Part shown: positions 45,551-64,000 of the stretch, piece by piece
How positions within the stretch are numbered: the stretch's first letter is position 1
Layout: each line of letters begins with the position of its first letter
Source of the DNA: Acidobacteriota bacterium
GTDB taxonomy: Bacteria > Acidobacteriota > Vicinamibacteria > Marinacidobacterales > Marinacidobacteraceae
DNA: 64,000 nt
Direction of reading: 5' to 3'
Assembly: GCA_022826825.1 (NCBI GenBank)
Contig: JAJDUD010000027.1
Span: 1,050 to 65,049 of the forward strand
The notes under the pieces: generated by a model
Databases searched by the model: none
Told to the model about the DNA's origin: nothing
The model's input: only the letters and a program-made list of their open reading frames with translations
Position numbers and translations under genes: made by a program

Positions 45551-45583
45551 CGGTTCTCCGTCCGGCTGGACGTGACACCGATG

Positions 45584-46714: not shown

Positions 46715-46826
46715 GGAAGCAGGCTAACACCCGGTCTAGACCACTTTCGCCCCAGTTTGCGTGTATGCAATGTACTTGACAAACAATGGTACAATACAAA
46801 CAAACTGCGATCAGCCGGAGGTCCCT
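46715..46826. promoter_or_regulatory. Divergent dndA/dndB intergenic region, AT-rich for this genome, with TTGACA at 46776-46781 and a GGAGG ribosome-binding site at 46816-46820
   Basis: The lower GC content and the TTGACA hexamer are visible in the sequence. In characterised systems DndB binds this intergenic region. No confident -10 element was assigned. Confidence 0.3.
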
Positions 46827-47957: not shown

Positions 47958-49467
47958 TCGGCTCGCCGGCCTTCCGTCCGTGTTCCAGGAGGACGGCATC
48001 GGTGAGACCCTGCGTCAGCACAAGCACTTCGTCCAGCAGTTGTATCTGGAGGATGAAGTCCCGTGGGTCGTGGGCTACAGCGGGGGGAAAGACTCCACCG
48101 CGACCCTGCAACTCGTCTGGCTTGCGATTGCGGAACTCGACGAGTCCCAGCGCCAAAAGCCCGTCCACGTCATCAGCACCGACACGCTCGTCGAGAACCC
48201 CATCGTTGCGGCGTGGGTGACCCATTCGCTCGACAAGATCAACGAAGCCGCAAAGGCGTCTTCCCTTCCGTTCGTTGCTCACCGCCTGACCCCCGAGGTG
48301 GAGGACACCTTTTGGGTCAACCTGATCGGGAAGGGCTATCCGGCGCCCCGTCACAAGTTCCGCTGGTGCACGGAACGGCTCAAGATCAAGCCCTCGAACC
48401 GGTTCATTCGCAATGTCGTGCGCCGGAACGGGGAAGCGATTCTGGTCCTCGGTACTCGGAAGGCGGAGAGCGCCAAGCGCGCTTCCACGATGAAGAAACT
48501 GGAAGAACATAGGGTCCGCGACCGATTGAGCCCGAACGCCAGTCTCCCCGGATGCCTCGTGCTGTCGCCCCTAGAGGACTGGTCGAACGACGACGTGTGG
48601 CTTTTCCTCATGCAGGTGGACAACCCTTGGGGCTACCGCAACAAGGATCTCCTCACGATGTACCAAGGAGCTTCGGAGGACGGCGAGTGCCCACTGGTGG
48701 TCGATACCTCGACGCCCAGTTGTGGGGACAGCCGGTTCGGTTGCTGGGTGTGCACGCTCGTCGACAAGGACCGGTCCATGACCGCGATGATCCAGAACGA
48801 CGAGGAAAAGGAATGGATGCTGCCGCTGCTGGAACTCCGGAACGAACTCGACACGCCCAATGACCGGCCGCTCCGGGACTTCCGCCGGATGACCGGGGCG
48901 GTCCAGCTCTTTCACGACCGTCCCATCCCCGGCCCCTACACGCAGAAAGCACGCGAGACGTGGCTGCGTCGCGTGCTCCAGGCCCAGCGCTGGGTCCGGG
49001 AGAACGGCCCCAAGGACGTAAGGTCAATCGAACTCATCACCGCCGCCGAACTTGCAGAGATTCGGCGGATCTGGGTCGTGGAGAAACACGAGATCGAGGA
49101 TCTGTTGCCCGGGATTTACGAGGAGGAAACCGGCGAGCCGTATCCAGACGCCGCAAGCAGAAACGACAGCCCTCTCGGGCCCGAAGGGCTGGAAGCGCTC
49201 AAACAGGTCTGTGGCGACGACTCGCTCCACTACGAGTTGACGCGCAATCTCCTGTCGCTCGAGTGGCAGTATCGAACTCATCTCAAGCGGAGGGGGCTTC
49301 TCGACCGAATCGAGGCGATGGTGCGCCGCGGGTATTACGAGAGCGCCGACGACGCGACGGATTACGCGCGGAAACGGAAGCACGCGCTGGACGCCGCCCG
49401 GGAACTTGCAGCGCGCGAGATCGACGAGGCTCCCCGTTACGCGAAGCCTTCCTTGTTCGAGGTCTGA
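47950..49467 (+). CDS. dndC: DNA phosphorothioation protein DndC (PAPS-reductase-like ATP pyrophosphatase)
   Basis: 505 aa. It has the PP-loop SGGKDST and conserved Cys (CGDSRFGCWVCT). It overlaps the dndB stop by 8 bp. Confidence 0.85.
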   Translation: MANRLAGLPSVFQEDGIGETLRQHKHFVQQLYLEDEVPWVVGYSGGKDSTATLQLVWLAIAELDESQRQKPVHVISTDTLVENPIVAAWVTHSLDKINEAAKASSLPFVAHRLTPEVEDTFWVNLIGKGYPAPRHKFRWCTERLKIKPSNRFIRNVVRRNGEAILVLGTRKAESAKRASTMKKLEEHRVRDRLSPNASLPGCLVLSPLEDWSNDDVWLFLMQVDNPWGYRNKDLLTMYQGASEDGECPLVVDTSTPSCGDSRFGCWVCTLVDKDRSMTAMIQNDEEKEWMLPLLELRNELDTPNDRPLRDFRRMTGAVQLFHDRPIPGPYTQKARETWLRRVLQAQRWVRENGPKDVRSIELITAAELAEIRRIWVVEKHEIEDLLPGIYEEETGEPYPDAASRNDSPLGPEGLEALKQVCGDDSLHYELTRNLLSLEWQYRTHLKRRGLLDRIEAMVRRGYYESADDATDYARKRKHALDAARELAAREIDEAPRYAKPSLFEV

Positions 49468-49489
49468 TGGCCGTGCGGCAGGTCGGGTC

Positions 49490-51466
49490 GTGATTCTCGA
49501 CGAACTCGTTCTCGAGAATTTCGGAGTTTTTCGCGGACGGAACGTCCTGTCACTCACCCCGCCGTCGCGTCGAAAGCCCCTTGTGGTCGTGGGAGGGTTG
49601 AACGGTGCCGGGAAAACTACCCTTCTTGATGCCGTGCAACTGGCCCTCTTCGGGAAGCGCGCACCGTGTGTTGACGGAAACGGCGGCGGCTACAACGGCT
49701 ACCTGAGGGGGCTCATTCACCGGGGTGTTCGGTCTTCCACGGGCGCGAGTCTGGAACTCTCCTTTCGGCATCGGGACGCAAGTTCCGAGCACCGCTACCG
49801 GGTCCGCCGCCACTGGCGCAGCAGGTTTCGCACGGTCCAGGAGAAAGTCGAAGTCCTCCGCGACGACCACCCTCACCGAACGCTCTCCGAACGCTGGGTG
49901 GAATCCGTGGAACAGTTCATCCCGCTCGGGATTGCCCGTTTGGTGTTCTTCGACGGGGAGAAGATTGAGGCGCTCGCGGACCCCAGCACCTCGTCCGAGG
50001 CGCTACGAGCCGGTGTGAACGCGCTCCTCGGGCTAGGCATCGTCGAACGCCTCGGTGCCGACCTGATGGTCTACGAACGACGTAGCAAGAGCAGGCTGAT
50101 CCGGGGTTCGGACCAAACCGCGGTGAAGGCTGCGGAGCTTGAACTCAAACGGCTCGAAAGAGAACGGAAGTCGTGGGCAAACGAACGCGGTTCCCGCCAG
50201 AACGTGCTCGACCAAGCCCGCAAGCGCGTCGAGCAATGTGAAGCCCGGTTCCGCGCGGAGGGCGGCGACCTCTACGAGCGGCGGAAAGAGCTCGAAGAGG
50301 AGCGTGACGCGTGTCACCGGAGAGTGCGCGAGGCGGAAGATGGACTCCGAGACCAAGCGACCACGCTCGCTCCCTTCCTGCTCGTCGAGGACGTGATCTC
50401 GGCTGCGGCTGACCGAGCGGACGAAGAGTGGACGGCGGTCGAAGCCCAGCGGACCCACGAGGTGCTGTCCACGCGAGACCGGAAGATGTTGAAGGCGCTA
50501 CGCGGAAGAAAATGCAACGCGCGGCTCGTTGAAGAACTGGACGATCTGTTCCGCCGCGATCGAGAGGAGAGGAAATCGGCAACGAGGATTGAGGTTCTGC
50601 TGGGTGCATCCGACTTCACCCGTCACGAATTGCGGCGACTCAGCAGCGGTGGGCTGTCCGTGTTTCGGTCTTCCCTGGCGGAGACCAGAAGAGCCCTGCT
50701 CGAGGCACAGGCTGAATTCGAAGAGGCCGAAAGGACGCTCAGCATGGTCCCGGTCGGCGAATCGGTGAAGGCACTGATCGAGGATCGTGATGACGCCCGC
50801 CGGGCGGCGATTCGGGCGGAACAGGAGTTGGGCGAGGCCAAGTCCGCAGTGGACCGGATCGACCATGCCAGGGAACGACAGCGGGCGCGGTACGAACGCT
50901 TGCTTGCCGAGGCTGCGGAACAGTCATTGGAGATCGATGACATACAGCGCGCGCTCCATCATTCGGGACGCGTCCGCGACACATTGGATCGTTTCCGGTC
51001 CACTCTTCTGGACCGCAGTTGCCAACACATCGCCTCGCTGGTGCAGGAAGGCTTCCAGCACTTGCTCAGGAAGAAGGCGCTGATCACCGGAGTCGAACTG
51101 GACCCGGAACAGCTGGTGCTTGCGCTGCGGGGACCGGACGGCCGCAATCTCCCATCGGAGCGGCTGTCCGCGGGAGAACGCCAACTTCTGGCCGTCGCGA
51201 TCCTTTGGGCCCTAGCGCGTGCTTGCGGTCGGCCGCTGCCCCACATCGTGGACACTCCGCTCGGACGGCTGGACTCGACCCACCGTGACCACATCGTGCG
51301 GCGTTACTTCCCGAGCGCGAGCCACCAGGTAATCCTGCTTTCCACGGATGAGGAGATCACGCCGCCGTACTGGGAGAGGATCCACCGCCATGTCGGCCAC
51401 GCTTACACGTTGGTCCACGACGATCAGAGGGGCGCGACTTCGATTCGCGAGGGGTACTTCTGGTGA
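49490..51466 (+). CDS. dndD: DNA sulfur modification protein DndD (SMC-like ABC ATPase)
   Basis: 658 aa from GTG. Walker A is GLNGAGKTTLLDAVQLALFGK. It has a long coiled coil. The C-terminus carries the signature and Walker B motifs (LSAGERQLLAVAIL ... PHIVDTPLGRLD). Confidence 0.85.
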   Translation: MILDELVLENFGVFRGRNVLSLTPPSRRKPLVVVGGLNGAGKTTLLDAVQLALFGKRAPCVDGNGGGYNGYLRGLIHRGVRSSTGASLELSFRHRDASSEHRYRVRRHWRSRFRTVQEKVEVLRDDHPHRTLSERWVESVEQFIPLGIARLVFFDGEKIEALADPSTSSEALRAGVNALLGLGIVERLGADLMVYERRSKSRLIRGSDQTAVKAAELELKRLERERKSWANERGSRQNVLDQARKRVEQCEARFRAEGGDLYERRKELEEERDACHRRVREAEDGLRDQATTLAPFLLVEDVISAAADRADEEWTAVEAQRTHEVLSTRDRKMLKALRGRKCNARLVEELDDLFRRDREERKSATRIEVLLGASDFTRHELRRLSSGGLSVFRSSLAETRRALLEAQAEFEEAERTLSMVPVGESVKALIEDRDDARRAAIRAEQELGEAKSAVDRIDHARERQRARYERLLAEAAEQSLEIDDIQRALHHSGRVRDTLDRFRSTLLDRSCQHIASLVQEGFQHLLRKKALITGVELDPEQLVLALRGPDGRNLPSERLSAGERQLLAVAILWALARACGRPLPHIVDTPLGRLDSTHRDHIVRRYFPSASHQVILLSTDEEITPPYWERIHRHVGHAYTLVHDDQRGATSIREGYFW

Positions 51467-51882
51467 AACACCACTTTGCCCCGTTGGAGCGGATCCGTGT
51501 CTCCAAGAGGGCGCAGGACCAACTCGTGACGCTGCGTCGGCGGACGGGACTCCGCCAATGGAACTGGGTGTGCCGGTGGGCGTTCTGTCGGTCCATCGCC
51601 GAGCCCTCGAAGCCGCCGATGGTCCCGGTACCATCGGACAGCAACCTCGAAATGGCTTGGCAGGTGTTCGGAGGCGAGCACGAAGACATCTATGCGGCGA
51701 TCCTGCGGCAGCGGTGCATTCAGGATGGACTGGGGACGGACACTGAGACACTGGCAACCCAGTTCCGGCTGCATCTCCATCGGGGGATCGGATACCTCGT
51801 TGGCGACCAGTACATCCGGAGCATCGGCGAGTTAATCGGTAGCGTCGTGCCGTCCGATTCGGAGCGCCTTCTGCTGCGTTGA
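51463..51882 (+). CDS. dndE: DNA sulfur modification protein DndE
   Basis: 139 aa. It matches the conserved DndE pattern (RIRVSKRAQDQLVTLRRRTGLRQWNWVCRWAFCRSIAEP). It overlaps the dndD stop as GTGA. Confidence 0.8.
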   Translation: MKHHFAPLERIRVSKRAQDQLVTLRRRTGLRQWNWVCRWAFCRSIAEPSKPPMVPVPSDSNLEMAWQVFGGEHEDIYAAILRQRCIQDGLGTDTETLATQFRLHLHRGIGYLVGDQYIRSIGELIGSVVPSDSERLLLR

Positions 51883-53345
51883 GGGGCATCGAGCGCCATC
51901 GCACTGCGCTGCACCGAACCGAGCTGTCGCGACCGGTTCGGCTTGCACTCAACGATGGGGTCCTAGCGCGCGGCAAGAGTTTCTTCGACTATGGGTGCGG
52001 GCGTGGTGCGGACGTTCGCTATCTGGTTCGACGCGGATTTGATGCGGATGGCTGGGATCCGGTGCATCGCCCGGGGGACAGGTGCGCGGCTGACGTGGTG
52101 AATCTTGGATACGTAGCCAACGTCATCGAGGATCCCGATGAGCGGCTTGCCACTCTGCAGGACGCGTGGCGGCTCGCGCGCGAGGTTCTGGTTGTGGCGG
52201 CGAGGCTCGATGTCGATCGGCGCCATTGGCTCGGACCGAACTTGGGCGATGGGACCCTCACGCGGCTGGGAACTTTCCAGAAGTACTTCGCCCAGGACGA
52301 GTTGACCGAGTGGGTCAACGAGGCCACCGGGGAGGCGGCACTCGCGGCCGCGCCGGGTGTTCTCTACGTATTCCGGGACGCGGTTCGGCGAGAGACCTTC
52401 GCGGCAGCCCGATTCAGGTCCCGGGGGCGGCAGCTATCGATCGCCGCCTCCGTTGATCTCTATCGCGAGAACAGTGAGGCGTTGGATGGGCTCATGGAGT
52501 TCCACTGTGATCGCGGCCGGTTGCCCCGGACCGAAGAGTTCCCGCAATCTGATTCCCTCGTGAGTGCCTTCGGCAGCGTGCGACGGGCCGCGCGGTTCCT
52601 GCGCGGCCTCGTCGGAGCACGGCGATGGGACGATGCGCGCCGAGAGCGCTCGGCCGATCTGCTGGTCTATCTCGCGCTAGCTCGGTTTCGCGGCAGACCG
52701 CGGCTCTCAGAGCTGCCCCAAGCGCTCCAACTGGATATCCGGTCGCTGTTCTCGACTTACAAATTTGCCTGCTCGACAGCAGACACTCTGCTGTTTCGCG
52801 CCGGCGACGCCGAAGCGATCGACAAGTCCTGCCGCGACTCACCGGTCGGCAAGATCACACCAACAGCCTTTTACGTGCACGAATCCGCACTGTCACGCCT
52901 AGCGCCGGTACTTCGCGTCTACGAGGGCTGCGCTCGGAGCTACCTCGGAGCCGTGGAGGATGCCAACATCATCAAGCTCTATCGTACCCAGTCCAAGGTC
53001 TCCTATCTTGAGTATCCCGATTTTGACAACGATCCCCATCCGGAGCTTCACCGGTCCGTCAACATCTGCCTCCGGTCATTCAAAGTGAAGGTGCGTTGCT
53101 ACGAGAGCAACAGACCTGTTCTGCACAGAAAGGAGCTGTTCGTGGATCCGTCGTATCCGCGGCGATCGGTGTTCGCCCGTTTGTCAGCGCAGGAGGAGCG
53201 GCATGGGTTGTATTCGCATCCTTCGGCAATTGGGCGACGTCAGGATTGGGACAAGTATTTGACAGCTGCCGGCCTCGGGCACCGTGGCCATCGATTGGTC
53301 GGAGCCAAGTCCTCACGTCCTTCCATTGCCAACATCCCGGCCTAA
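51879..53345 (+). CDS. dnd-associated putative SAM-dependent methyltransferase, translationally coupled to dndE
   Basis: 488 aa from a TTG start that overlaps the dndE stop. The SAM motif I-like segment is FFDYGCGRGADV. Its size and position match the putative methyltransferases that accompany dnd clusters. Confidence 0.55.
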   Translation: MRGIERHRTALHRTELSRPVRLALNDGVLARGKSFFDYGCGRGADVRYLVRRGFDADGWDPVHRPGDRCAADVVNLGYVANVIEDPDERLATLQDAWRLAREVLVVAARLDVDRRHWLGPNLGDGTLTRLGTFQKYFAQDELTEWVNEATGEAALAAAPGVLYVFRDAVRRETFAAARFRSRGRQLSIAASVDLYRENSEALDGLMEFHCDRGRLPRTEEFPQSDSLVSAFGSVRRAARFLRGLVGARRWDDARRERSADLLVYLALARFRGRPRLSELPQALQLDIRSLFSTYKFACSTADTLLFRAGDAEAIDKSCRDSPVGKITPTAFYVHESALSRLAPVLRVYEGCARSYLGAVEDANIIKLYRTQSKVSYLEYPDFDNDPHPELHRSVNICLRSFKVKVRCYESNRPVLHRKELFVDPSYPRRSVFARLSAQEERHGLYSHPSAIGRRQDWDKYLTAAGLGHRGHRLVGAKSSRPSIANIPA

Positions 53346-53548
53346 AGTCGCCTTCCCCGAGATTCAAGAACACGACCAGAGAGCGTTCCGCCTACCGAAC
53401 AGTGTGATTCGCCTGAGCACTCTCGCTAGATTCCGCCGCTCCCCGCCATAACGCCTGCCCGGACAGCCGCGTGATCGAACTAGCCCATAGGACTCTCTCC
53501 ACCAGACCCTCATCAAGTAACGAATCTTCCCGACCGCCCTGTCTCCCC

Positions 53549-54034
53549 TCAGATCGCCTGCTCCCCCTCCGCCCGTCCAACCGTCCCAAGAGTTGCCTCC
53601 ACGCGAAGACGGAATATCCTGAGAAACGTATCCAATGTGCGTGGTTTGTCGTCAAACCACTCCTGTAGAACATCGAATCCTCCGTGGGCGTACTTGTTGA
53701 ATTCACGGACAGCCTCATCGCTCAAATAGCTCTGCGAGAGAGGATCCACGAGATTCGCCAGGGTCTCCCGCACAGCGGTCCTTTCTTCCAAATCCACGTT
53801 CAGGTAGTCGAGCTCCCGCCGTAGAAATAAAGCTACCAACAATCGGCCCCGCTTCTTGTACTCGCCAGGGTAGTAGTCCACAAGCTGTGCAGTTTCGCCC
53901 ACGTTCATCGACCTCTTGCGCTTCGTGGCGATTCCCGCCATAAGACAGAAGTAGTACGCGTCGAAGTCGATGTCCAGGTCAACGCGAATTTCCTCAAACC
54001 ACTTCCGAGCATCCCTCCTGATATAGAAATCCAT
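53549..54034 (-). CDS. Hypothetical protein; last gene of the low-GC four-gene operon
   Basis: 161 aa with no recognisable motif. It starts 6 bp after the upstream SMC-like gene on the same strand. Its GC content is ~55% against ~70% locally. Confidence 0.4.
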   Translation of the reverse strand: MDFYIRRDARKWFEEIRVDLDIDFDAYYFCLMAGIATKRKRSMNVGETAQLVDYYPGEYKKRGRLLVALFLRRELDYLNVDLEERTAVRETLANLVDPLSQSYLSDEAVREFNKYAHGGFDVLQEWFDDKPRTLDTFLRIFRLRVEATLGTVGRAEGEQAI

Positions 54035-54039
54035 ATCAT

Positions 54040-56031
54040 CTACTCCGTATTGTGCTGAAATGTTTCGAAGAAGCCTTCGTCCGTAACAACCATCCCGTCG
54101 TCGGTCACGGTACAGCCCTGACTCGCTAGTGCCGTATTTTCGTAGTCCGTCGCACCTTTCCGGAACAACGTGAGCAATCGGACACTGCCGCGTCCGGACC
54201 GAACCACACTCGGCACAAACTCGTTCCTCTCAGACGAAATAACGAACGCAACAAACTGGTCCGTAAGTAGCGGTACCAATTCGCCGATCTTCGGACGCAC
54301 CGCCAGATCGATCGGAATTGCCGGACTGTCAACAATAAAGGGCAAGCGATGCTGATCTGCCCTTCCCAAGAGCGTGGACAAGAACGCATAACCGATAGAG
54401 AGCGTCTCTCCTGCGCTGCCTCCCTCCTGATCCCTCAGCTTCAAGCAGCCATCGATTCTCTCCACACGAATGTCGTTGTGAGGCATCAACGCGCCAATTC
54501 GATCGTTCGTATCTTCGCAAATTGCATCCGTAATGGCTGTTCTAGCCTTGACCATCGCGGATTCTAGAACGCGAATCAACAAGTCTCGCTTCTGGCTCAA
54601 GCCTCGACTCTTGGTGACCTCTTCAACAGCACGCGTCAGGCGTTCAATGCCGTCACTTACGGTCTCTATCGAGAACACACGTTCAATGTCGACCGTCGAC
54701 GGCTGATCCAAGCGGACCATTTCGTCCCTATCGTTATAGGCCTTGAGTCGCTCGGTAATGGTCTCACGCTGAATTTTTAGGCGCCCAATTTGCTGCCCTA
54801 GGTCTCGCAGAACGTGATCTGGTTCCTCCACCTTCCGGGCAACGATGTCGCGTTGAGTCTTCGCCTGTTGCAGTGCGCGCGACTCATGATCGAGTTTCGC
54901 CACACGACGAGACACTAGTGCGGCAGGCGCCTGGCGTGAATCCCCAACGACATCCGCGATCTGTGACTTCATTGCGTTAAGCACGCTTACGTTGTCACTG
55001 CTGAGATAGGAGCGGGCGCGCGACTGAATTGCACGACGAACGTCCGCGTCGATAGAGCGACCGCAAACACACTCGCTCTCGGCCGCCAAGTCCTCGAAGA
55101 ATTCGCGCGCCGCGCTTTCTGGGAGTTTCGTATTATCAAGCGTTTCACGGAGCTCGAAAACGAGGTCCGCAAATCCCTCGGCTAACGCGTGTGGGTCGCG
55201 CATTTGTTCGAGAAGACTGCGCGAACTAGCATGAACGTTGTCGTTGAGTTGGGTGACCAACTGTTCGGCCTCACTAACGTCACGTTGGCGACCCCTATCC
55301 TGACTCAATTGGACGTCGTACTGTTCCTCTGCCCGACGCAGCGATTCCTGGACTGAGGAAAGCTCAGCATCCCAATGTTCCCTCTCGTGGTATAGCTTTT
55401 CGCGACGCTCCTTCCAGCGGCGCAATAGGTTAGTGCGGCGACTGTGGCCGCGCTGTTCACGTGCTCCTACATGCTGTGTCTGCCGTTCCCAGTACGACTC
55501 GATTGGACGCTCCATGTCACGAAAGATATTGAGCTGAAAGAGGCTCTCAACGGCAGTCTCGGCGTGTGTGTACTTTGGTTGGAGCAGGCGGTCTGCGAGT
55601 TCCCCGTCAAACACATAGAAATCGACGAACGCTTTGTTCATGAATCGCTTGACGCCGACGGGCGGATCGAAGCCCGCCTTCTGTCCGGCACCCCACGTGG
55701 TCTTGTATCCAACAGAACCCGTGTCGAAGTCAAAGTTCATGAGGATGGTGAGCCGCTTATCGTCGACCTGTAGACCTACCTCAAATAGTGCCGGACCATC
55801 CGATCCATTCTTTTTCGCCATGGCCCGCACAGCGTCCGGCGTCCAGTCACTAGCGGCACCGGAAAGCGCAGCCCGGAGAAGTGTCAGGGTAGTGGTTTTC
55901 CCCGTGCCATTAGGCATCTGGATTAGACAAACCGCGGCAGCGCTACCGTCGTTAAGCCGGCAATTCACTTCATGGTCCGGACAGCGAAGGCCCTTAGCCC
56001 GCCAGCCAAGTATGCGCAGGTTTGTAGTCAC
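54040..56031 (-). CDS. DndD-like / SMC-like ABC ATPase, a paralog of dndD
   Basis: 663 aa. N-terminal Walker A is CLIQMPNGTGKTTTLTLLRAAL. It has a central coiled coil. The C-terminal segment HRLPFIVDSPAIPIDL...FVAFVISSERNEF parallels DndD PLPHIVDTPLGRLD...QVILLSTDEEI. Confidence 0.6.
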   Translation of the reverse strand: MTTNLRILGWRAKGLRCPDHEVNCRLNDGSAAAVCLIQMPNGTGKTTTLTLLRAALSGAASDWTPDAVRAMAKKNGSDGPALFEVGLQVDDKRLTILMNFDFDTGSVGYKTTWGAGQKAGFDPPVGVKRFMNKAFVDFYVFDGELADRLLQPKYTHAETAVESLFQLNIFRDMERPIESYWERQTQHVGAREQRGHSRRTNLLRRWKERREKLYHEREHWDAELSSVQESLRRAEEQYDVQLSQDRGRQRDVSEAEQLVTQLNDNVHASSRSLLEQMRDPHALAEGFADLVFELRETLDNTKLPESAAREFFEDLAAESECVCGRSIDADVRRAIQSRARSYLSSDNVSVLNAMKSQIADVVGDSRQAPAALVSRRVAKLDHESRALQQAKTQRDIVARKVEEPDHVLRDLGQQIGRLKIQRETITERLKAYNDRDEMVRLDQPSTVDIERVFSIETVSDGIERLTRAVEEVTKSRGLSQKRDLLIRVLESAMVKARTAITDAICEDTNDRIGALMPHNDIRVERIDGCLKLRDQEGGSAGETLSIGYAFLSTLLGRADQHRLPFIVDSPAIPIDLAVRPKIGELVPLLTDQFVAFVISSERNEFVPSVVRSGRGSVRLLTLFRKGATDYENTALASQGCTVTDDGMVVTDEGFFETFQHNTE

Positions 56032-56033
56032 GG

Positions 56034-56297
56034 CTACGAATCAAGGCCGGCAGACGCGGCGGCGCCTTCGGCGTTAGAGCCAGGAGCGTCTCCTGACTCG
56101 TTTGGGGACCCTTCCGGTTCCAGGCGCACTTCCTTGTAAGCGAGATCAAGATGACGACGTGATGCGTCCAGGTCGTGGATATCCTCGGCGCCCGAAGCGA
56201 CGGCGGTAAACCAACCGATAAGCCTCCTGGCAAGTGCGGAACTTTGGCCGTGCTCTCTCGCAGCTTCGTGAATAGCGGTGCGGATTCGGGGATCCAT
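56034..56297 (-). CDS. Hypothetical 87-aa protein between the PLD-helicase and the DndD-like ATPase
   Basis: It lies 3 bp from the downstream gene and 13 bp from the upstream gene. It has no recognisable motif. Confidence 0.35.
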   Translation of the reverse strand: MDPRIRTAIHEAAREHGQSSALARRLIGWFTAVASGAEDIHDLDASRRHLDLAYKEVRLEPEGSPNESGDAPGSNAEGAAASAGLDS

Positions 56298-56309
56298 GGT
56301 TTAGGTGTC

Positions 56310-58193
56310 CTAGTCGGGGCGTAAGTTGGCTAGAGGTGATAGCCAATCACGGCGCTCTTCGTCCGCCGTAAGATCGGCGCCAGCTGTGCTGCCTCGAATG
56401 AAATCGACGATGTTGGCGATCTTTGTTGGGTTGTTCGGGTCGGTGCGAAGACACCGTCCGATCCTTTGGATGGTCTCAAGACGCGTGCGGTCAGAGGCGA
56501 ACAGAATGACAGAGTTCAAGGAGCGAATATCGATTCCCTCGGACAACCTATGGCAGGTCATTAGGCACTCTAAACGACCGCTCGCGAAGTCTTTGAGAAC
56601 TGCCTTCTCCTCGCCGGAATAGTACGTGTGGAAATCGGCTCGATGGCCGTGGATGATTTCTAGAATCGCGTTGCCATAGTCCCGGGTCTCTACAAACACG
56701 ATGGAGCGTTCGAGTAGGTCTTGGTGCGTCTCAATGAACTCAGCGAAGACGGGTATCTTGCCTTCGGCAGTCTTGTACACACGTGCGATGTCCGTCCACA
56801 CCTCCTGCTCGGACATTGGACTCCCCGCGGCGGTACGTGCGGCCTGTTTTCGATAGACGGCCTGGATACGTCTCTTATCGGCCTGCGACAGTTCGAAGGG
56901 TAGAGCAAAGTAGTGGAAGGGTGCCAGGATTCCGCGGCATATAGCCTGTTCGAGTCCGAAGCTCATTAGGACGGGCCCGATATGGGTCTCGATGAACTTG
57001 GTGCCTTCCTCATCGTATTTGCGCTCAGGCGTGGCACTCAGGCCCAGGCGGAAACGGACGGGATCGGAAAGCCCACCGAGTCGATTTCTATTGCCCTGAC
57101 TGCCGAGGCGATGGACTTCGTCGTGGATTAGAAGAGTTCGACCGGAATGGGCTGGGCTGAGTGAGCGGAGCGCTCGGTGGGCTTGGGGACGGGAGATCAG
57201 TAATACGGATCCGGCAGGAGATAGAATGAAGTCATTGAGTTGTTTGTGCTTCTCGTAGTGACGGAGAAGTTGATGTGTTTTTCGTACGGATGCAAACAAG
57301 CCGAGTACTTCTTCGTACCACTGATCAAGAAGGTCGATGCCATCGGTACAGACGATAATGGTATCGACGAGTCTTTTGTCGAATAGAGCCTCGATGATGT
57401 TGAGGGCAATCCGTGTCTTCCCCGTGCCAGTGGCCATATTGAGGACGCCGCGTTCTGCCTTCATGAAGACGGCCAGTGCCTCATCCTGGTGACGCCATTT
57501 GTTGTGCGATTTGGGCAATTCAGCGGCAGGTGAACGGGGAGTTTGAGACGCGCGGATCAATTTGCGGCGTGCCGCTTCGGGAAATTCGAAGACCAGAACC
57601 CCAGGATCCGTTTTATTCCACAGCGCCTCGAAATGCGCGCGCTTTCGGTGAGCACGCTTTGTGTCGTTCCAAGAGGAGTAGACGTCGACGCATTCGCGGT
57701 TGTTCTCGAATGCGTTTCGGCTTTCGTTGGACGATCCGGTGAAGGCGACGAAGTCCTGCTCGTCGAAGAAGATGCCGATCTTCTCGTGATACAGCCCAGT
57801 ACCGTTCTTCGGAACGGCGATCCGAATCTCCAAGCGCTTTAGTTCGAGCAGGAGGGCAAGACGCGCGGTCCCGTCACCAACGCCCTCTGAAAAGGTTGTG
57901 TCAATAATGTGTTCAAGGCGTTGGCTACAGATTTCTTTCTTGGTGATGCCGGACTTGATGGCCTCTAGGTCATCAGCCGATAGTTCGACGGACGTAATGA
58001 GACGAATGTGCCCGTCTCGCTTCAGGAACGCGCCCAAAGGGGCGCCAAATGACTCTAGAGCTGAACTAGAGAAGTAACCGACGGCACGCCAATAGTGTTT
58101 GGCCGCGTGCAGAGACGGGCGAAATAGATCGGCGACTAGGTCGTCGTAGCCGGAACGGTAGTCGGGCTTGTATTGAATCTCCCGTAGAGCCAT
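56310..58193 (-). CDS. PLD-family (HKD) nuclease fused to an SF2 DEAD/DEAH-type helicase, restriction-enzyme-like
   Basis: 627 aa. The N-terminal HxK motif is HEKIGIF. Helicase motif I is MATGTGKTRIAL, motif II is DEVH, motif III is SATP. The C-terminal RecA domain reads QRIGRCLR. Its GC content is lower than that of its surroundings. Confidence 0.7.
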   Translation of the reverse strand: MALREIQYKPDYRSGYDDLVADLFRPSLHAAKHYWRAVGYFSSSALESFGAPLGAFLKRDGHIRLITSVELSADDLEAIKSGITKKEICSQRLEHIIDTTFSEGVGDGTARLALLLELKRLEIRIAVPKNGTGLYHEKIGIFFDEQDFVAFTGSSNESRNAFENNRECVDVYSSWNDTKRAHRKRAHFEALWNKTDPGVLVFEFPEAARRKLIRASQTPRSPAAELPKSHNKWRHQDEALAVFMKAERGVLNMATGTGKTRIALNIIEALFDKRLVDTIIVCTDGIDLLDQWYEEVLGLFASVRKTHQLLRHYEKHKQLNDFILSPAGSVLLISRPQAHRALRSLSPAHSGRTLLIHDEVHRLGSQGNRNRLGGLSDPVRFRLGLSATPERKYDEEGTKFIETHIGPVLMSFGLEQAICRGILAPFHYFALPFELSQADKRRIQAVYRKQAARTAAGSPMSEQEVWTDIARVYKTAEGKIPVFAEFIETHQDLLERSIVFVETRDYGNAILEIIHGHRADFHTYYSGEEKAVLKDFASGRLECLMTCHRLSEGIDIRSLNSVILFASDRTRLETIQRIGRCLRTDPNNPTKIANIVDFIRGSTAGADLTADEERRDWLSPLANLRPD

Positions 58194-58580
58194 CGTGCGG
58201 GTAGTGCGGGATTACGGAGCTCTGAGGATGCTCAGGACTTGGGACCTGCTGCTCCGGGAACGTGGGATAGGAAGGGGATGAAATCGCCACCGAGGGCTGT
58301 CGAAGCCGAGTTTCCGCGACCGACTGTAATGGCCACGTGACAGATGTTACGCGAAACGGGATGAGGGCACCCGTCAAGAGTGATCGATGCTTGGGAAGGG
58401 TGACCGCCGAGACCTGGGACCGGGGGTCGAATGCCAAACAGTCACGAGGGCGCCGACATGAGTAGGGGTGCCGGGCGCTGGTCCCGAGGCCGGAGCTTCC
58501 GCATCTGCTGGTGAACCTGCGGTGCGTAAAGGCAGATTACGACATTGAGTGAACTCCAACATTTACGCTAATTTCCTGCA

Positions 58581-59834
58581 ATGCCCCGTTTCGAGCGCAG
58601 CCAGGTCGCCGCCCTGGCAAACCGCCTCCGCGAGACGCCCCGCCGGATCGTGGCGGTGTTCGGGCCCCGACAGACGGGCAAGACCACCATCATCCGGCAG
58701 GCGCTAGTCCGCTGCGGGATGCCGTTCCGCTACATCGCGGTGGACGAGCCGGACCCTTCGCCCGGGCGCCGCCCGGGGCGGGACGCGCCGCGGACGGATC
58801 CGTTCCCGGCCGCGATGCGGGACGAACGCTGGCTTGTGCAGTGCTGGGAGACCGCGCGCGAGGAAGCCGCGGCGGGCCGGGGCTTCGTGCTGGCGCTCGA
58901 CGAGATCCAGAAGGTCCCCCGTTGGTCGGAGGTAGTCAAGGGACTCTGGGACGCGGACCGGCTCGCCGACCGTGCCCTGCGGGTCGTGATCGCCGGATCG
59001 AGTCCGATGACGATGCAGCAGGGCCTGAACGAGAGCCTGGCCGGGCGTTTCGAGACGATGCCGGTGGCGCAGTGGTCGTTCCCGGAGATTGCCGCGGCCT
59101 TCGGTTTCGACATCGACCGCTACGTCTTCTACGGCGGCTACCCCGGCGCGGCGCCGCACGCCGGAACCCCTCCGGAGTGGCGCGACTACGTGCGCCGCTC
59201 GATCGCGGACGCGAGCGTCGAGCGCGACGTGCTGGCGATGACCCGGGTGGACCGGCCGGCGCTGCTGACGCGCCTCTTCCGGCTCGCCTGTCAGATGTCG
59301 GGGCAGATGGTCGCCTACAACAAGATGCTCGGCCAGCTCCGGGACGCGGGCAACACGACCACGCTCGCCCGCTATCTCGACCTGCTGGGCCGCGTCGGAC
59401 TGGTCGCCGGACTCGCGCGCTACGCGGGGCCGCTGTCCGACCGGGCGGCCAGCCCCAAGCTGAATGTCCTCGACACCTCTCTGATGACCGCGGCGTCCGG
59501 TTACACCTTCGAGGAGGCGGAGGCGGACCGCACCTTCTGGGGCCGGGTCGTCGAGACCGCCGTGGGGGCGCACCTCGTCAACACCGGTGGGATCGGCCTC
59601 CGCGTCCACTACTGGCGGGACGACGCGCACGAAGTGGACTTCGTGATCGAACGCGGGCCGAAGCTGGCGGCGATCGAGGTCAAGACCGGACGCGACCGGT
59701 CGAGCGGCCGCGGCCTCGCGGCGTTCCAGCAGCGCTACGAGCACGCCCGCACGGTCCTCGTGGGGCCGGGAGGCGTTTCCCTGGCGGATTTCCTCGGCCA
59801 ACCCGCCACGTACTGGGTGGCGCCGGACGAATGA
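58581..59834 (+). CDS. AAA-family ATPase with a DUF4143 C-terminal domain (AAA_14/DUF4143 family)
   Basis: 417 aa. Walker A is FGPRQTGKTT, Walker B is LALDEIQ. The DUF4143-like tail reads HYWRDDAHEVDFVIERGPKLAAIEVK. Its stop overlaps the start of the next gene as ATGA. Confidence 0.7.
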   Translation: MPRFERSQVAALANRLRETPRRIVAVFGPRQTGKTTIIRQALVRCGMPFRYIAVDEPDPSPGRRPGRDAPRTDPFPAAMRDERWLVQCWETAREEAAAGRGFVLALDEIQKVPRWSEVVKGLWDADRLADRALRVVIAGSSPMTMQQGLNESLAGRFETMPVAQWSFPEIAAAFGFDIDRYVFYGGYPGAAPHAGTPPEWRDYVRRSIADASVERDVLAMTRVDRPALLTRLFRLACQMSGQMVAYNKMLGQLRDAGNTTTLARYLDLLGRVGLVAGLARYAGPLSDRAASPKLNVLDTSLMTAASGYTFEEAEADRTFWGRVVETAVGAHLVNTGGIGLRVHYWRDDAHEVDFVIERGPKLAAIEVKTGRDRSSGRGLAAFQQRYEHARTVLVGPGGVSLADFLGQPATYWVAPDE

Positions 59835-62800
59835 CCTTGGTACCCCGCACCGTCACCGAAGCCGGCGACGACCGGTCCCGCCCGCTTGCCGCCTTCCGCG
59901 ACGCCGGAGCCTTCGTGCTCCTCGGCGATCCGGGAGCGGGCAAGACGACCGAGTTCCGCCGTGAGGTCGAGGCCCTGGGGGCCGACGCGCTGTTCCTTCC
60001 GGTCCGGGACTTCCTCACGTTCGCCGGAACCCGTGCCGACGCGTGGTCCGGGAAGACGCTGTTTCTTGACGGACTCGACGAGGTGCGGGCGGGACAGGGT
60101 GATCCGCGAGCGGTGCTCAACGACGTGCGGCGACAACTCGATGCGCTCGGCAGGCCGCCGTTCCGGCTCGCGTGCCGCGCGACGGACTGGCTCGGGAGCG
60201 ATCGGGAACGCCTGAGGGCGGTGTCCCCGGACGAAACCGTCACCGCGCTTCGACTCGATCCGCTCCGCGATCCGGACATCGAGTACTTGCTGGACGCGAA
60301 CCTGGGCGATGCCGAGGCCCGGCGTTTCCTGAAGTCCGCCGGGGAGAAGGGTCTCTCCGGGTGGCTGCGGAACCCGCAGGGCGTCGAAATCCTCATCACG
60401 GCCTTCGCTGCCGGTCGCGGCTGGCCCGCAAGCCGCCGGGCGGCGTTCGAGGCCGCCTGCCTCCGCATGGCCGGCGAGCGCAACACCGAGCATCGGGACG
60501 CGGCGAAGGGCCGGCCGAGTCCTGCTGAAATCCTGGACGCCGCCGCCGAACTCTCCGCGACGCTGCTGCTCTGCGGAGCGGTCGGGTGTTCGCTCGACGC
60601 CTCGTCATCGGACGACGGTTTCCCGTCACTGGACGAACTGCGCCCGACCGATCGGAGTCTGGCGCGGGCCGCCCTCGACACCAAACTGTTCACCGAGGCT
60701 GTCCCGGCCGGCGTCCGGCGGTTCGCACCCCATCACCGCCAGATCGCCGAGTTCCTGGGAGCGCGGTACCTCGCGCGGAGGATCGAGAGCGGCCTGCCCA
60801 TCGGCCGGGTGTTCGCTCTCCTGACGGCGCCGGACGGCGCCCCGCCGACGCCCCTCCGCGGTCTTGCCGCGTGGCTCGCCGCCCACCACCGGCCGGCCCG
60901 GGCGCGCCTGATCGAACGGGACGCCGTCGGCATGGCGGCCTACGGGGACCTCCACGATTTCTCACCCGGCGAGAAGGCGCGACTCCTGAACCGGATCCAC
61001 GCTCAGGATCCGAAACTGGACGCCGGACGGCTGCCCGAGGACGCGCTGCGATCCCTTGCCATCCCCGATCTGGCCTCGACCCTCCGGCAGGTCCTTGAAG
61101 CAACGGGCCGCGAAGACGCCGACCAGGTCGTCACCGGTTTCGTGCTCCGGGCGCTGGCGCTCGGCGAGCCGATGCCGGAGTTCACGGGTCTCCTCCTCGA
61201 GATCGTCCGCGATGAAACCCGGTGGTCCGTCGTCCACCGGCGAGCGCTGGATGCCTTCTTCCACAACTGCGTGGCTGCGGAGGCGCGGCGGGACGGCGCG
61301 CACCGGCTCCTGCTTGACATCCGCCGCGGCGAGGTCCGCGATGTCGACCGGGAGCTTCTCGGAACCCTCCTTGCCCGGATGTATCCCGAAGAGATTCCAC
61401 CCGGGGAGATTTGGAACTACCTCCTCGACCACCCGACCCGGCTCATCGGCCGGTACTACATGTTCTGGCGGCAAGATCTCTTCGACCGTACGCGGGAAGG
61501 CCGTTTCCCCGATCTGCTGGAGACCGTCGGCTCCCGACTCCCGGGATTGCGGTCAGTGCTGCACTCGCGCTTCCTCGAGGATCTTCCCGTCGCACTGCTT
61601 GCCCGGACGTTGGAGAGCGTTGGGGACCGAACGCCGGTGACTCGGGTGCACGATTGGCTCCGCATCGGGGCTCGCTCTCGAATCGCGCACCCGCACGCCA
61701 CCGAACCCGTTCGGAATATCCGCGCATTCCTCGAACGGCGTCCCGAGTTGCACAAGGCACTCTGGCTGGAGGGGTTGCGGCGGTGCCCGGAAGCGAACGA
61801 CCTTCTGGCCTGCGTTCGGCAGGTGGAGGAGAACCTGTACGGGGCCAACCTGCCGGATGACTTCGGGAGGTTCTGTCTGGAACAGGCCCTGAAGGTGGCG
61901 GACGGCCGGCCTCGGCTGGCGGAGTGGCTGCTCGGGGAGGCCATCAAGCGTGCCGCCGAAGAGGGAATCACTCTGGAGGAACTCGACGAACGGACGCGCC
62001 GGCGCGGGCGTCTGGAGGAGCGGCTTCCAGATTTGCTGCGAACCCCGCTGTCGCCCGGGTATCTCGGGATCAAGCGCGACAGGAAGGACTACACGGCGGA
62101 ACGCAGAGAGCGGGTTGGGCAGTGGGAGCGCCGCGTGCGCTCGGAAGTCGTGGCGCTCCGGGAGAATCGGGCGGTGCCGCAGTTGCTGCACGGGGTCGCG
62201 CAGGCGTATCTCGGGACACTGCAGCAGTACTTCGGCGGCCCGGACGATGGAGACTGGTTCTCCGATGCGACCCTCGTGGAGGCGGCGCTTCGCGGACTGA
62301 GCGGCGTCCCGTTCCGCGATGATGTCCCCGAGGTGGCGGAGATCCTTCGCCTGCGCGCCGAATCCCGGTTCCACTATCTCTCGTTGCCGTTTCTCGCCGG
62401 ACTCGAAGTAATGGAGAGAGAGGATCCGGAGCGACTCGCTACCCTCGACGACACGCAGCGACGGACCGCACTGACCCTCTACTACACGCTCCCGACGGGT
62501 CGGCTGGAGACACCTCCGTGGTATCGAGAACTGCTGCGGTCGCGCCCGGAGTTGGTTGCCGAGGTTCTCCTCCGCTGGGCCAAACCCAACATCGCCGCCG
62601 GGAGCGACAGCCTCGTGCATCTGGATCGTCTGGTCAGGGACCAGGATCACGCGGAGGTGGCCCGCCGAGTCTCGCTACCGCTCTTGCGGGGTTTCCCGTT
62701 GCGCGGCCTGGGAACGCAGCTTCGGGTCCTTGACTGTCTGCTCTGGGCGGCCCTGCGGCACGCCGACCGGACGGAACTCCAGAAGATCATTGAGCGCAAA

Positions 62801-63841
62801 GTCGCCTCGAAGAGCGTCACCACCGCGCAGCGGGCGCACTGGCTGGCGGCGGGTCTGGTCGCCGCCCCGGAGGACTACCGGGTCCGGTTCGACGAATTCA
62901 CGCGGGCCCAGGACGAGGCCACGCGCGAGGTGGCGGTCTTTCTGTGCCCCGATCGGGCCGTCCCGTTCCGGGTGAGCGTCACGGATCCTGCGACTCTGAG
63001 GCTGCTCGTCCAGCGATTCGCGCCGATGTTCGCGCCGGACGAGGAGTGGAAGGAAGGTCTAATGGACCTTCCGGACAGGGCGGCGGCAAAGACACATGCG
63101 TGGATCGAGATCCTCGGTGCGCAGCCGAGCGCCGCGGCGGGCGAGGCGCTGGACTCGCTGCTCGCGGATCCGACTCTCGCCGAGTGGAGGCGGACACTGG
63201 AGTTCGCGCGCGACCGCCAGCGCACTGCGAGCCGCGACGCCGGCTATGCGCCTGCTTCGGTGGAGCGCGTTGCGGAGACGTTGCGCGGAGGACGTCCGAC
63301 CAACGCGGCCGACCTACTGGCACTTGTCACCGATCATCTCGACGATCTCGCGGCCGACCTACGCGGTGGGGACGAGAACGCTTGGCGCGGCTTCTGGAAT
63401 GAGGACTCGTACGGACGTCCCGCGAGTCCCAAGCCGGAGAACTCGTGCCGCGATGCGGTGCTTGGGGCGCTGCGCCGGAGGTTGGGCGGTCGGATCGACG
63501 TGCTGCCCGAGGCGGGTCACGTCGGCGGCGCCCGCAGTGACCTCCGCGTGTCCTGCGACGGAATGGCCGTTCCCATCGAAATCAAGCGCGCGGGCCATCC
63601 GGGCCTCTGGACGGCCGTCTCCGAACAGCTCATCCCGAAGTACACGACGCTCCCGGCGGCCGACGGCCATGGGATCTACCTCGTCCTCTGGTTCGGCGGA
63701 GACCACGTCGGCAAGGGTCCGTCCGACCGGCGGCCGACGACTCCGGAGGATCTAAGGAAGGCTCTCGAGGAGCCGTCCCACGACGGCGAGCCGAAGATTC
63801 AGGTACGCGTTCTCGATGTGACCTCGCCCACCGTTCGGTAG
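59831..63841 (+). CDS. 1337-aa NACHT-type STAND NTPase with a long helical C-terminal region and a terminal PD-(D/E)xK nuclease-like domain
   Basis: Walker A is VLLGDPGAGKTTEF. The NACHT-type Walker B is LFLDGLDEV. The NACHT-associated motif reads FAPHHRQIAEFLGARYL (FxHxxxQEFLAA-like). About 900 aa of alpha-helical sequence follows. The C-terminus reads VLPEAGHVGGARSDLRVSCDGMAVPIEIKRAG (E...D...ExK). The longer ORF 58841.. is a frame overlap with the upstream gene and is rejected. Confidence 0.6.
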   Translation: MTLVPRTVTEAGDDRSRPLAAFRDAGAFVLLGDPGAGKTTEFRREVEALGADALFLPVRDFLTFAGTRADAWSGKTLFLDGLDEVRAGQGDPRAVLNDVRRQLDALGRPPFRLACRATDWLGSDRERLRAVSPDETVTALRLDPLRDPDIEYLLDANLGDAEARRFLKSAGEKGLSGWLRNPQGVEILITAFAAGRGWPASRRAAFEAACLRMAGERNTEHRDAAKGRPSPAEILDAAAELSATLLLCGAVGCSLDASSSDDGFPSLDELRPTDRSLARAALDTKLFTEAVPAGVRRFAPHHRQIAEFLGARYLARRIESGLPIGRVFALLTAPDGAPPTPLRGLAAWLAAHHRPARARLIERDAVGMAAYGDLHDFSPGEKARLLNRIHAQDPKLDAGRLPEDALRSLAIPDLASTLRQVLEATGREDADQVVTGFVLRALALGEPMPEFTGLLLEIVRDETRWSVVHRRALDAFFHNCVAAEARRDGAHRLLLDIRRGEVRDVDRELLGTLLARMYPEEIPPGEIWNYLLDHPTRLIGRYYMFWRQDLFDRTREGRFPDLLETVGSRLPGLRSVLHSRFLEDLPVALLARTLESVGDRTPVTRVHDWLRIGARSRIAHPHATEPVRNIRAFLERRPELHKALWLEGLRRCPEANDLLACVRQVEENLYGANLPDDFGRFCLEQALKVADGRPRLAEWLLGEAIKRAAEEGITLEELDERTRRRGRLEERLPDLLRTPLSPGYLGIKRDRKDYTAERRERVGQWERRVRSEVVALRENRAVPQLLHGVAQAYLGTLQQYFGGPDDGDWFSDATLVEAALRGLSGVPFRDDVPEVAEILRLRAESRFHYLSLPFLAGLEVMEREDPERLATLDDTQRRTALTLYYTLPTGRLETPPWYRELLRSRPELVAEVLLRWAKPNIAAGSDSLVHLDRLVRDQDHAEVARRVSLPLLRGFPLRGLGTQLRVLDCLLWAALRHADRTELQKIIERKVASKSVTTAQRAHWLAAGLVAAPEDYRVRFDEFTRAQDEATREVAVFLCPDRAVPFRVSVTDPATLRLLVQRFAPMFAPDEEWKEGLMDLPDRAAAKTHAWIEILGAQPSAAAGEALDSLLADPTLAEWRRTLEFARDRQRTASRDAGYAPASVERVAETLRGGRPTNAADLLALVTDHLDDLAADLRGGDENAWRGFWNEDSYGRPASPKPENSCRDAVLGALRRRLGGRIDVLPEAGHVGGARSDLRVSCDGMAVPIEIKRAGHPGLWTAVSEQLIPKYTTLPAADGHGIYLVLWFGGDHVGKGPSDRRPTTPEDLRKALEEPSHDGEPKIQVRVLDVTSPTVR

Positions 63842-63862: not shown

Positions 63863-64000
63863 TCAGGACGTTCGACGCGATCCCGAGAGGGACAAGCTTC
63901 GGACCTTACGGAGTGGGAAGGCGGTAATTCGCTCGGTCAGCGGGTAGTCCAGCTCCCCCGGATAGACGACCCACAGATGCTCGAGCCCAAGATCATCGGC
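63863..64000 (-). CDS. C-terminal end of a second DUF4143-type AAA ATPase; the gene continues beyond the window
   Basis: The minus-strand translation ...ADDLGLEHLWVVYPGELDYPLTERITAFPLRKV...* matches the conserved DUF4143 C-terminal motif (wvvyPG...y.l...I..lPl). It is convergent with the NACHT gene. Confidence 0.45.
   Translation of the reverse strand, partial: ADDLGLEHLWVVYPGELDYPLTERITAFPLRKVRSLSLSGSRRTS

Follow-up and report, generated by a model that had tools for sequence, protein, structure and literature searches.

An EruA-like NACHT gene and its conserved DUF4143 ATPase partner in an Acidobacteriota bacterium: a candidate two-gene anti-phage module

The two-gene locus

A window of 64,000 nucleotides from an Acidobacteriota bacterium (assembly GCA_022826825.1, contig JAJDUD010000027.1, positions 1,050 to 65,049 of the forward strand) contains two adjacent plus-strand genes, which are considered here as a candidate anti-phage module; coordinates are those of the window. 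Gene 1 (58581..59834) encodes a 417-amino-acid AAA+ ATPase (AAA_14) with a C-terminal DUF4143 domain, assigned to the PADLOC candidate family PDC-S01. Gene 2 (59831..63841) encodes an EruA-like NACHT protein, on homologues of which Pfam places the domain DUF8371. The stop of gene 1 and the start of gene 2 share four nucleotides (59831..59834, plus strand), which read ATGA. Both open reading frames and this overlap had been described in an earlier model-made reading of the DNA (the original prediction), and are present as described. That reading gave the larger protein 1337 amino acids; the open reading frame stands, with an ATG start at 59831, but its 1337 codons include the stop and the product has 1336 residues.

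Upstream of gene 1, the map of open reading frames leaves a divergent intergenic region (58194..58580) between it and pbeA on the minus strand. This region is presumed to hold the promoter of a two-gene operon. No consensus promoter emerged upstream of gene 1 from a simple scan for sigma-70 sites, and the promoter and terminator scan was uninformative.

The NACHT module of gene 2

Bacterial NACHT proteins are prokaryotic relatives of the animal NLR immune receptors, and most of those characterized are single genes with N-terminal effectors. In gene 2 the NACHT module covers amino acids 1–445 (59831..61165, plus strand), and consists of a nucleoside triphosphatase (NTPase) domain followed by helical and winged-helix extensions. 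The translation contains LLGDPGAGKTT at amino acids 30–40, LFLDGLDEV at 77–85 and FAPHHRQIAEFLGARYL, with the H302 motif, at 298–314. Conservation of these motifs was followed in 30 homologues, down to 41% identity. Residues G32, P34, G35, G37 and K38 of the Walker A motif (G32-D-P-G-A-G-K38-T39) are invariant, as are every residue of the Walker B signature (D80-G81-L82-D83-E84), the sensor-1-like R116 and the H302 motif. A D[GAS]hDE signature sets NACHT proteins apart from other STAND clades (Kibby et al., bioRxiv 10.1101/2022.07.19.500537).

In structural comparison the module lies closest to the NACHT modules of NLRs. The highest score, 21.2, was obtained with the NACHT module of NLRP3 (351 residues aligned), followed by two further NLRP3 entries (20.5 and 19.6), NOD2 (19.4), and NLRP2 and NLRP1 (about 14); an NB-ARC protein (NRC2) scored 12.4, MalT 12.3 and generic AAA+ proteins at most 11.5. 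The P-loop, the DGLDE Walker B motif and the motif around H302, from which a NACHT protein had been predicted, are thus all present, and the structure agrees with them. This supports placing gene 2 within the NACHT clade, as an NLR-like STAND NTPase. Its P-loop starts at residue 32, so that no N-terminal effector precedes it.

The C-terminal nuclease-like domain and the middle region

At the opposite end of the protein, a helical bundle (amino acids 1085–1195; 63083..63415, plus strand; helices H2-103 of the C-terminal model) precedes a domain of the PD-(D/E)xK restriction-endonuclease fold (amino acids 1196–1336; 63416..63838, plus strand). The characteristic residues lie in the motifs PKPE (E1203), SDLRV (D1237) and PIEIKR (E1250 and K1252), with Q1266 and Y1271 following. 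A structure predicted for amino acids 1085–1336 from 18 homologues (mean predicted local distance difference test score, 79.5) shows the bundle and then an alpha-beta-beta-beta-alpha-beta core. In this model E1203 opens helix 1, D1237 starts strand 2, E1250-I-K1252 lies on strand 3, and Q1266 and Y1271 are on the helix after strand 3; the positions of the catalytic residues fit the canonical PD-(D/E)xK strands. E1203, D1237 and E1250 are invariant among the homologues; K1252 does not vary in 18 sequences and hardly varies in 30. The catalytic-type residues are also retained in plasmid homologues at only 27–33% identity.

The nearest structures to the C-terminal domain were restriction enzymes and related nucleases: BamHI (8.0), BstYI and OkrAI (7.9), Can2 and BglII (7.7), HamA (7.1), McrC (6.8) and Cap4 (6.2). 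A Foldseek search with the same model returned nothing below an E-value of 0.01; its top matches (SfsA, Can2, PspGI and OkrAI) nonetheless have the same fold. Sequence profiles assigned no nuclease family to the C-terminus, either in Pfam or in a search of the family profile against PDB sequences. A C-terminal nuclease-like domain with an E...D...EIK arrangement had been proposed, together with profile searches and structure prediction as ways to check it; the predicted structure points to PD-(D/E)xK restriction enzymes. The fold is thus well supported by the predicted model, and from it we infer nuclease activity.

A domain of this kind might instead bind DNA without cutting it, gene 2 then being a housekeeping or regulatory STAND protein, similar to the MalT or AfsR switches. 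Many homologous loci do sit among metabolic genes. This is nevertheless highly improbable: the E/D/ExK catalytic residues are invariant, there is no helix-turn-helix effector domain, the structural match to NACHT is far stronger than that to MalT, and the patchy cross-phylum distribution at about 40% identity is typical of horizontally moving defence genes.

Between the two ends lies a middle region (amino acids 446–1084; 61166..63082, plus strand). It is the least conserved part of the protein: its mean column conservation is 0.60, whereas the NACHT module reaches 0.66 and the nuclease domain 0.65. The HyoA hidden Markov model aligns to amino acids 855–1331, so that from about residue 855 the sequence is common to the HyoA family. 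The middle region is probably a sensor or scaffold.

One strongly conserved motif within the middle region, ALRENRAxPxLLhxxAxxYLG (about amino acids 771–797; about 62141–62221), gave a profile match to a chloroplast ribosome-recycling factor, which has SVRTNRASPTMLDRIEVEYYG (E-value 9e-5). The match is short and probably convergent. A search of the full-length gene 2 profile against the PDB gave this one short match to ribosome-recycling factor and nothing else.

Family membership of gene 2

One of the equivalog models in NCBIfam release 20 is NF058535 ('NACHT domain-containing antiphage protein EruA'), which has a curated cutoff of 1000 bits. Gene 2 aligns to it over amino acids 12–1331 (model positions 11–1318 of 1318) in a single collinear stretch. 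EruA has the same length as gene 2, and the same layout of NACHT module, long middle region and C-terminal nuclease; gene 2 differs in falling below the equivalog cutoff and in belonging to a clade found mainly in metagenome-assembled genomes of Acidobacteriota, Gemmatimonadota and Latescibacterota type. Homologues from Thauera, Methyloversatilis and Azonexus pass the cutoff (1016–1057 bits). Gene 2 has more than 1000 homologues of conserved length. Its homologues carry a precomputed Pfam assignment to PF28130 (DUF8371). A profile of the C-terminal module matched 1318 clusters at 50% identity (E-value at or below 1e-30), and the matched part is nearly always the very C-terminal end. Full-length members have about 1330–1470 amino acids, and the numerous shorter matches are probably fragments.

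The related model HyoA (NF058534) shares the C-terminal part, including the nuclease domain (gene 2 amino acids 855–1331 against model positions 939–1428). The score of 158 bits compares with a cutoff of 1200, the N-terminal half aligns poorly and the HyoA model is longer (1430 positions).

In the Avs (AVAST) proteins a nuclease-type effector is fused to a STAND NTPase sensor, and recognition of phage proteins activates them through oligomerization. Gene 2 resembles them in joining such a sensor to a nuclease-type effector; they differ from it in lying outside the NACHT clade and in having N-terminal effectors, and no PADLOC Avs model matches gene 2. A closer parallel is bNACHT25, an anti-phage protein in which a NACHT domain with the D[GAS]hDE signature and a restriction-fold nuclease are likewise part of one polypeptide, although the Mrr-like nuclease of bNACHT25 is N-terminal (Kibby et al., bioRxiv 10.1101/2022.07.19.500537), whereas gene 2 has its nuclease at the very C-terminal end. 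The same authors noted that some bacterial NACHT proteins, a minority, carry effectors at the extreme C-terminus, and suggested that in space these come to lie where N-terminal effectors do (Kibby et al., bioRxiv 10.1101/2022.07.19.500537). The architecture of gene 2, which the original prediction held to be unusual, is therefore that of a large, catalogued family of a kind already noted. The locus is not a new kind of system, but a divergent representative of a NACHT family already listed as anti-phage.

The DUF4143 ATPase

The product of gene 1 matches Pfam AAA_14 (73 bits, cutoff 27; E-value 3e-20) and DUF4143 (99.9 bits, cutoff 28.1; E-value 1.6e-28), both above gathering, and the PADLOC PDC-S01 model PDLC04791 over its full length (483.8 bits; E-value 7e-146). 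The DUF4143 domain covers amino acids 214–369 by Pfam coordinates (59220..59687, plus strand). Across an alignment of 74 gene 1 homologues, the Walker A (GxxxxGKT) and Walker B (DE) motifs are kept, and so is a C-terminal nuclease-like motif, E...D353...E366-x-K368 (EVDFV ... IEVK). The same stretch gives weak matches to YraN/UPF0102 and CARF_PDDEXK models. The conserved motif and these matches suggest that gene 1 encodes an AAA+ ATPase with a putative restriction-fold-like domain of its own, in which the catalytic-type motif has been preserved. A search of the gene 1 profile against PDB sequences detected no solved structure. NCBIfam has no model for this protein, and only weak YraN-type matches were obtained there.

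The likeness of gene 1 to the PDC-S01/COG1373 ATPases (AAA_14 with DUF4143) extends over the full length. PDC-S01 is listed as a single-gene candidate without a known mechanism, whereas the subfamily to which gene 1 belongs is tied to an EruA-like partner.

Conservation of the gene pair

A relative is present at no fewer than 303 genome loci. A genome scan with one genome per species yielded 80 loci with a full-length relative of gene 2, at 31–43% identity. These are from Acidobacteriota, Latescibacterota, Chloroflexota, Dadabacteria, Nitrospinota, Entotheonella and Opitutales, and also from alpha-, beta- and gammaproteobacteria, including Thauera linaloolentis. Together with the window's own two contig copies of the locus (L001 and L002), they make a set of 82 loci. 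In 75 of the 82 (92%), a gene 1 homologue (42–60% identity) ends where the gene 2 homologue begins, and at most of 73 homologous loci, in different phyla, the two overlap by four nucleotides, with an ATG, GTG or TTG start. The betaproteobacterial homologues past the EruA cutoff (1028–1057 bits) share the same upstream ATPase. When two ATPase homologues were chosen from the list of matches, each was followed by a 1404-amino-acid protein with a four-nucleotide overlap; one of these proteins is annotated DUF8371 and the other has no Pfam record.

The two proteins also co-evolve: their pairwise identities are strongly correlated in 70 pairs (Pearson r = 0.89; Mantel test, 0 of 500 permutations). 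Mean identity is 60% for gene 1 and 40% for gene 2, making gene 2 the faster-evolving partner, and this, with the low conservation of its middle region, fits a sensor role for that region. The flanking genes change from locus to locus while the pair remains intact. Conserved adjacency, the four-nucleotide overlap, co-evolution and varying flanks together show that the pair is a conserved unit whose two genes are inherited together. The coupling of the NACHT gene to a DUF4143 ATPase, as first proposed from the ATGA overlap, is thus a conserved feature of the clade sampled.

Two independent single-gene defence systems could also have come to lie side by side through the clustering of defence genes. 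PADLOC lists PDC-S01 as single-gene, and its models match not only gene 1 but also an unrelated second ATPase downstream of the pair; NCBIfam models EruA, and none of its models matches the ATPase; and EruA-like proteins stand alone on some plasmids and in one locus above the EruA cutoff, as set out below. Neighbours of independent origin would hardly be expected to keep their order, strand and overlap across phyla in which gene 2 has diverged to 31–43% identity, or to show the correlation described above while their surroundings vary. Given the co-evolution and the conservation of the overlap, such a reading is considered unlikely.

The variety of contexts might equally be taken as a sign of a selfish mobile cassette or transposition module, in which an AAA+ ATPase and a restriction-fold nuclease would act in the manner of TnsC and TnsA and have no role in immunity. 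The pair often lies beside transposases or integrases (DDE_Tnp_1, IS66, IstB and an smpB hotspot), and relatives occur on plasmids. The conserved pair includes no transposase or recombinase, no terminal inverted repeats flank it, and the next gene lies just 21 nucleotides from the stop of gene 2. The N-terminal module is a NACHT whose closest likeness is with NLR immune receptors rather than with TnsC or IstB, and the family is curated as anti-phage. A transposon-like nature was rejected for lack of terminal repeats, and a mobile-element function of any sort is very improbable.

The occurrence of the pair in more than ten phyla, with identities of about 40%, suggests that it has spread widely by horizontal transfer. 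Many of the genomes that carry it (among L003–L082) are uncultured metagenome-assembled genomes of marine-sponge-symbiont lineages (Entotheonella, Spongiisociaceae, Dadabacteria, Latescibacterota and Poribacteria-like sets), and some genomes have two copies: OY760734 (L014 and L020) and OZ242219 (L012 and L067). Irregular copies were seen at two loci. In L052 (8001–12914), the gene 2 homologue looks interrupted, with a first open reading frame of 181 amino acids and a match spanning 4.9 kb; in L066 (6727–8232), the gene 1 frame runs about 230 nucleotides beyond the usual stop. An insertion in the first and a frameshift in the second may be responsible, or else errors of assembly.

Possible function and mechanism

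The two genes probably form an anti-phage (or anti-mobile-element) module, with the gene 1 product most likely working as part of a complex that includes the NACHT protein. A defence role, as had been proposed, is consistent with the full-length EruA match and with the adjoining island of phosphorothioation genes described below. By analogy with Avs and bNACHT proteins, a cue from an infecting phage would act on the middle region of gene 2 and relieve autoinhibition; the NACHT module would then bind a nucleoside triphosphate and oligomerize; and the oligomer would cluster the C-terminal nuclease domains and so lead to cleavage of DNA, either that of the phage or in the course of abortive infection. 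The COG1373-type ATPase encoded by gene 1 may contribute a second nuclease/ATPase subunit or a regulator. Among the roles open to it, that of physical partner, as subunit or regulator, is ranked first, that of independent neighbour second and a mobile-element function third.

Several findings weigh against this interpretation. The score of gene 2 against the EruA model, 861 bits, is under the cutoff of 1000. No match to gene 2 was found among the Pfam-A and PADLOC v2 models searched; the Pfam NACHT model (PF05729) does not match it, and reached an E-value of 0.046 in just 2 of 30 family members. Because the Pfam model stays below gathering, the NACHT assignment rests on motifs and structure. 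The word 'antiphage' comes from the curated family name, the source of which could not be traced. No publication was found that uses EruA or HyoA in this sense, only unrelated uses such as that for a SlyA-type regulator of Escherichia coli, and neither name appears in the 2026 Nature STAND survey or the 2025 trigger-screen preprint; the anti-phage label therefore derives from curation. Among 130 neighbouring genes at 22 diverse loci, counted with no background control, the top families are mostly housekeeping, and the 25 commonest neighbour Pfam families include few of defence type (Methylase_S twice, N6_Mtase, PIN twice and IstB), so that this sample does not establish a general enrichment in defence islands. 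Finally, the ATPase is absent from six informative genome loci; one of these, which encodes a Methyloversatilis protein (L060), passes the EruA cutoff. Likewise, no gene 1 homologue occurs within 5–6 kb of four distant plasmid homologues of gene 2 (from Pantoea, Vibrio, Ralstonia and Bradyrhizobium). The ATPase is therefore not essential everywhere, and the description of the NACHT gene as obligately paired with it does not hold.

One of the standalone genes lies on the Pantoea agglomerans plasmid pFC61912-B_E (L083, 5923–9957; 775.6 bits against the EruA model). It is located between an integrase gene and hypothetical genes; the anti-phage gene ppl lies 1.9 kb upstream of it, and a gene of the Abi family 1.6 kb downstream. 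No match to this homologue turned up when complete E. coli genomes were searched at the DNA level.

Since the standalone EruA-like proteins keep all the catalytic residues, the NACHT protein is plausibly self-sufficient. It could then be the whole sensor and effector, with the ATPase as a safety or regulatory subunit which, like an antitoxin or chaperone, keeps the nuclease off until infection, its own nuclease-like domain serving for binding only. Translational coupling would fix the stoichiometry of the two products, and gene 1 is the more conserved partner. The conservation of D353, E366 and K368 and of both Walker motifs in the 74 homologues points to a catalytically competent enzyme more than to a passive inhibitor, and this arrangement, too, is considered unlikely.

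Returning to the ATPase as a partner in a complex with the NACHT protein, a more specific form of this proposal, which is offered tentatively and is somewhat doubtful, is that the DUF4143 ATPase is an unrecognized core subunit of EruA-type systems. The two restriction-fold domains, one per protein, could jointly form a DNA-cutting machine, or the NACHT oligomer might load the ATPase-nuclease on DNA or activate it there. If so, this would be the first mechanism for the very large COG1373/DUF4143 (PDC-S01) family, and an instance of a bacterial NACHT receptor working via a dedicated helper ATPase.

The locus itself is a well-supported, unsurprising addition to a catalogued anti-phage family, the EruA-like proteins being a large and mostly metagenomic group with the nuclease effector at the far C-terminus. 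Its interest lies in the conserved ATPase-nuclease partner, for which NCBIfam offers no model; the annotation models now in use either list it as a single-gene candidate of its own or ignore it. If the partner is functionally required, DUF8371 and DUF4143/PDC-S01, both large uncharacterized families, would share one mechanism, and tools that call EruA or PDC-S01 as single genes would be dividing one system.

Genomic context

The two closest relatives of the pair (L090 and L091; 81–85% identity) have defence-rich surroundings, which include Eco57I-like, SNF2, RelA/SpoT, Schlafen-like, PIN and HigA-like (toxin–antitoxin) genes. Downstream of gene 2, a second DUF4143 ATPase gene runs convergently, with its 3' end in the window (63863..64000, minus strand); the presence of this gene had been reported. 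The window matches a metagenome scaffold (KELL22-1), and on the parent contig the gene is complete (L001, 14033–15217, minus strand) and encodes 394 amino acids with AAA_14 and DUF4143 domains, assigned to PDC-S01 subfamily PDLC04790. It ends 21 nucleotides from the gene 2 stop and its product is about 25–27% identical to that of gene 1. This gene was considered as a third component and rejected, as it is syntenic only in L090 and L091; it is probably an independent gene outside the conserved module.

On the other side of the pair, the region 44612–58193 has a G+C content of 0.55–0.66, compared with about 0.70 elsewhere, and contains a complete phosphorothioation defence island. One side of the island comprises an HNH/type IV-like gene, a dndA-like gene and dndB, dndC, dndD and dndE; the other is a minus-strand operon encoding PbeA (PLD and helicase; E-value 4.5e-254) and a PbeC-like ATPase. 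Both neighbours of the pair that were noted originally, the dnd genes and the operon encoding a PLD-helicase, are real. From the PbeA and PbeC-like matches, this operon is read as a putative Pbe restriction arm of the phosphorothioation system, and the island as a whole looks like a Dnd–Pbe system.

By its overlap with the end of dndE, a 488-amino-acid open reading frame (51879–53345, plus strand) looks like a member of the dnd operon; it has just a weak Methyltransf_23 match (E-value 2.8e-4) and none among the PADLOC models. Within the Pbe operon, an 87-amino-acid Sp-CxC protein (PF20304) is encoded between PbeA and the PbeC-like gene (56034–56297, minus strand), and a 161-amino-acid open reading frame with no family match follows the PbeC-like gene (53549–54034, minus strand). 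Neither matches the PADLOC PbeB or PbeD models, and the operon may therefore carry a variant Pbe gene set.

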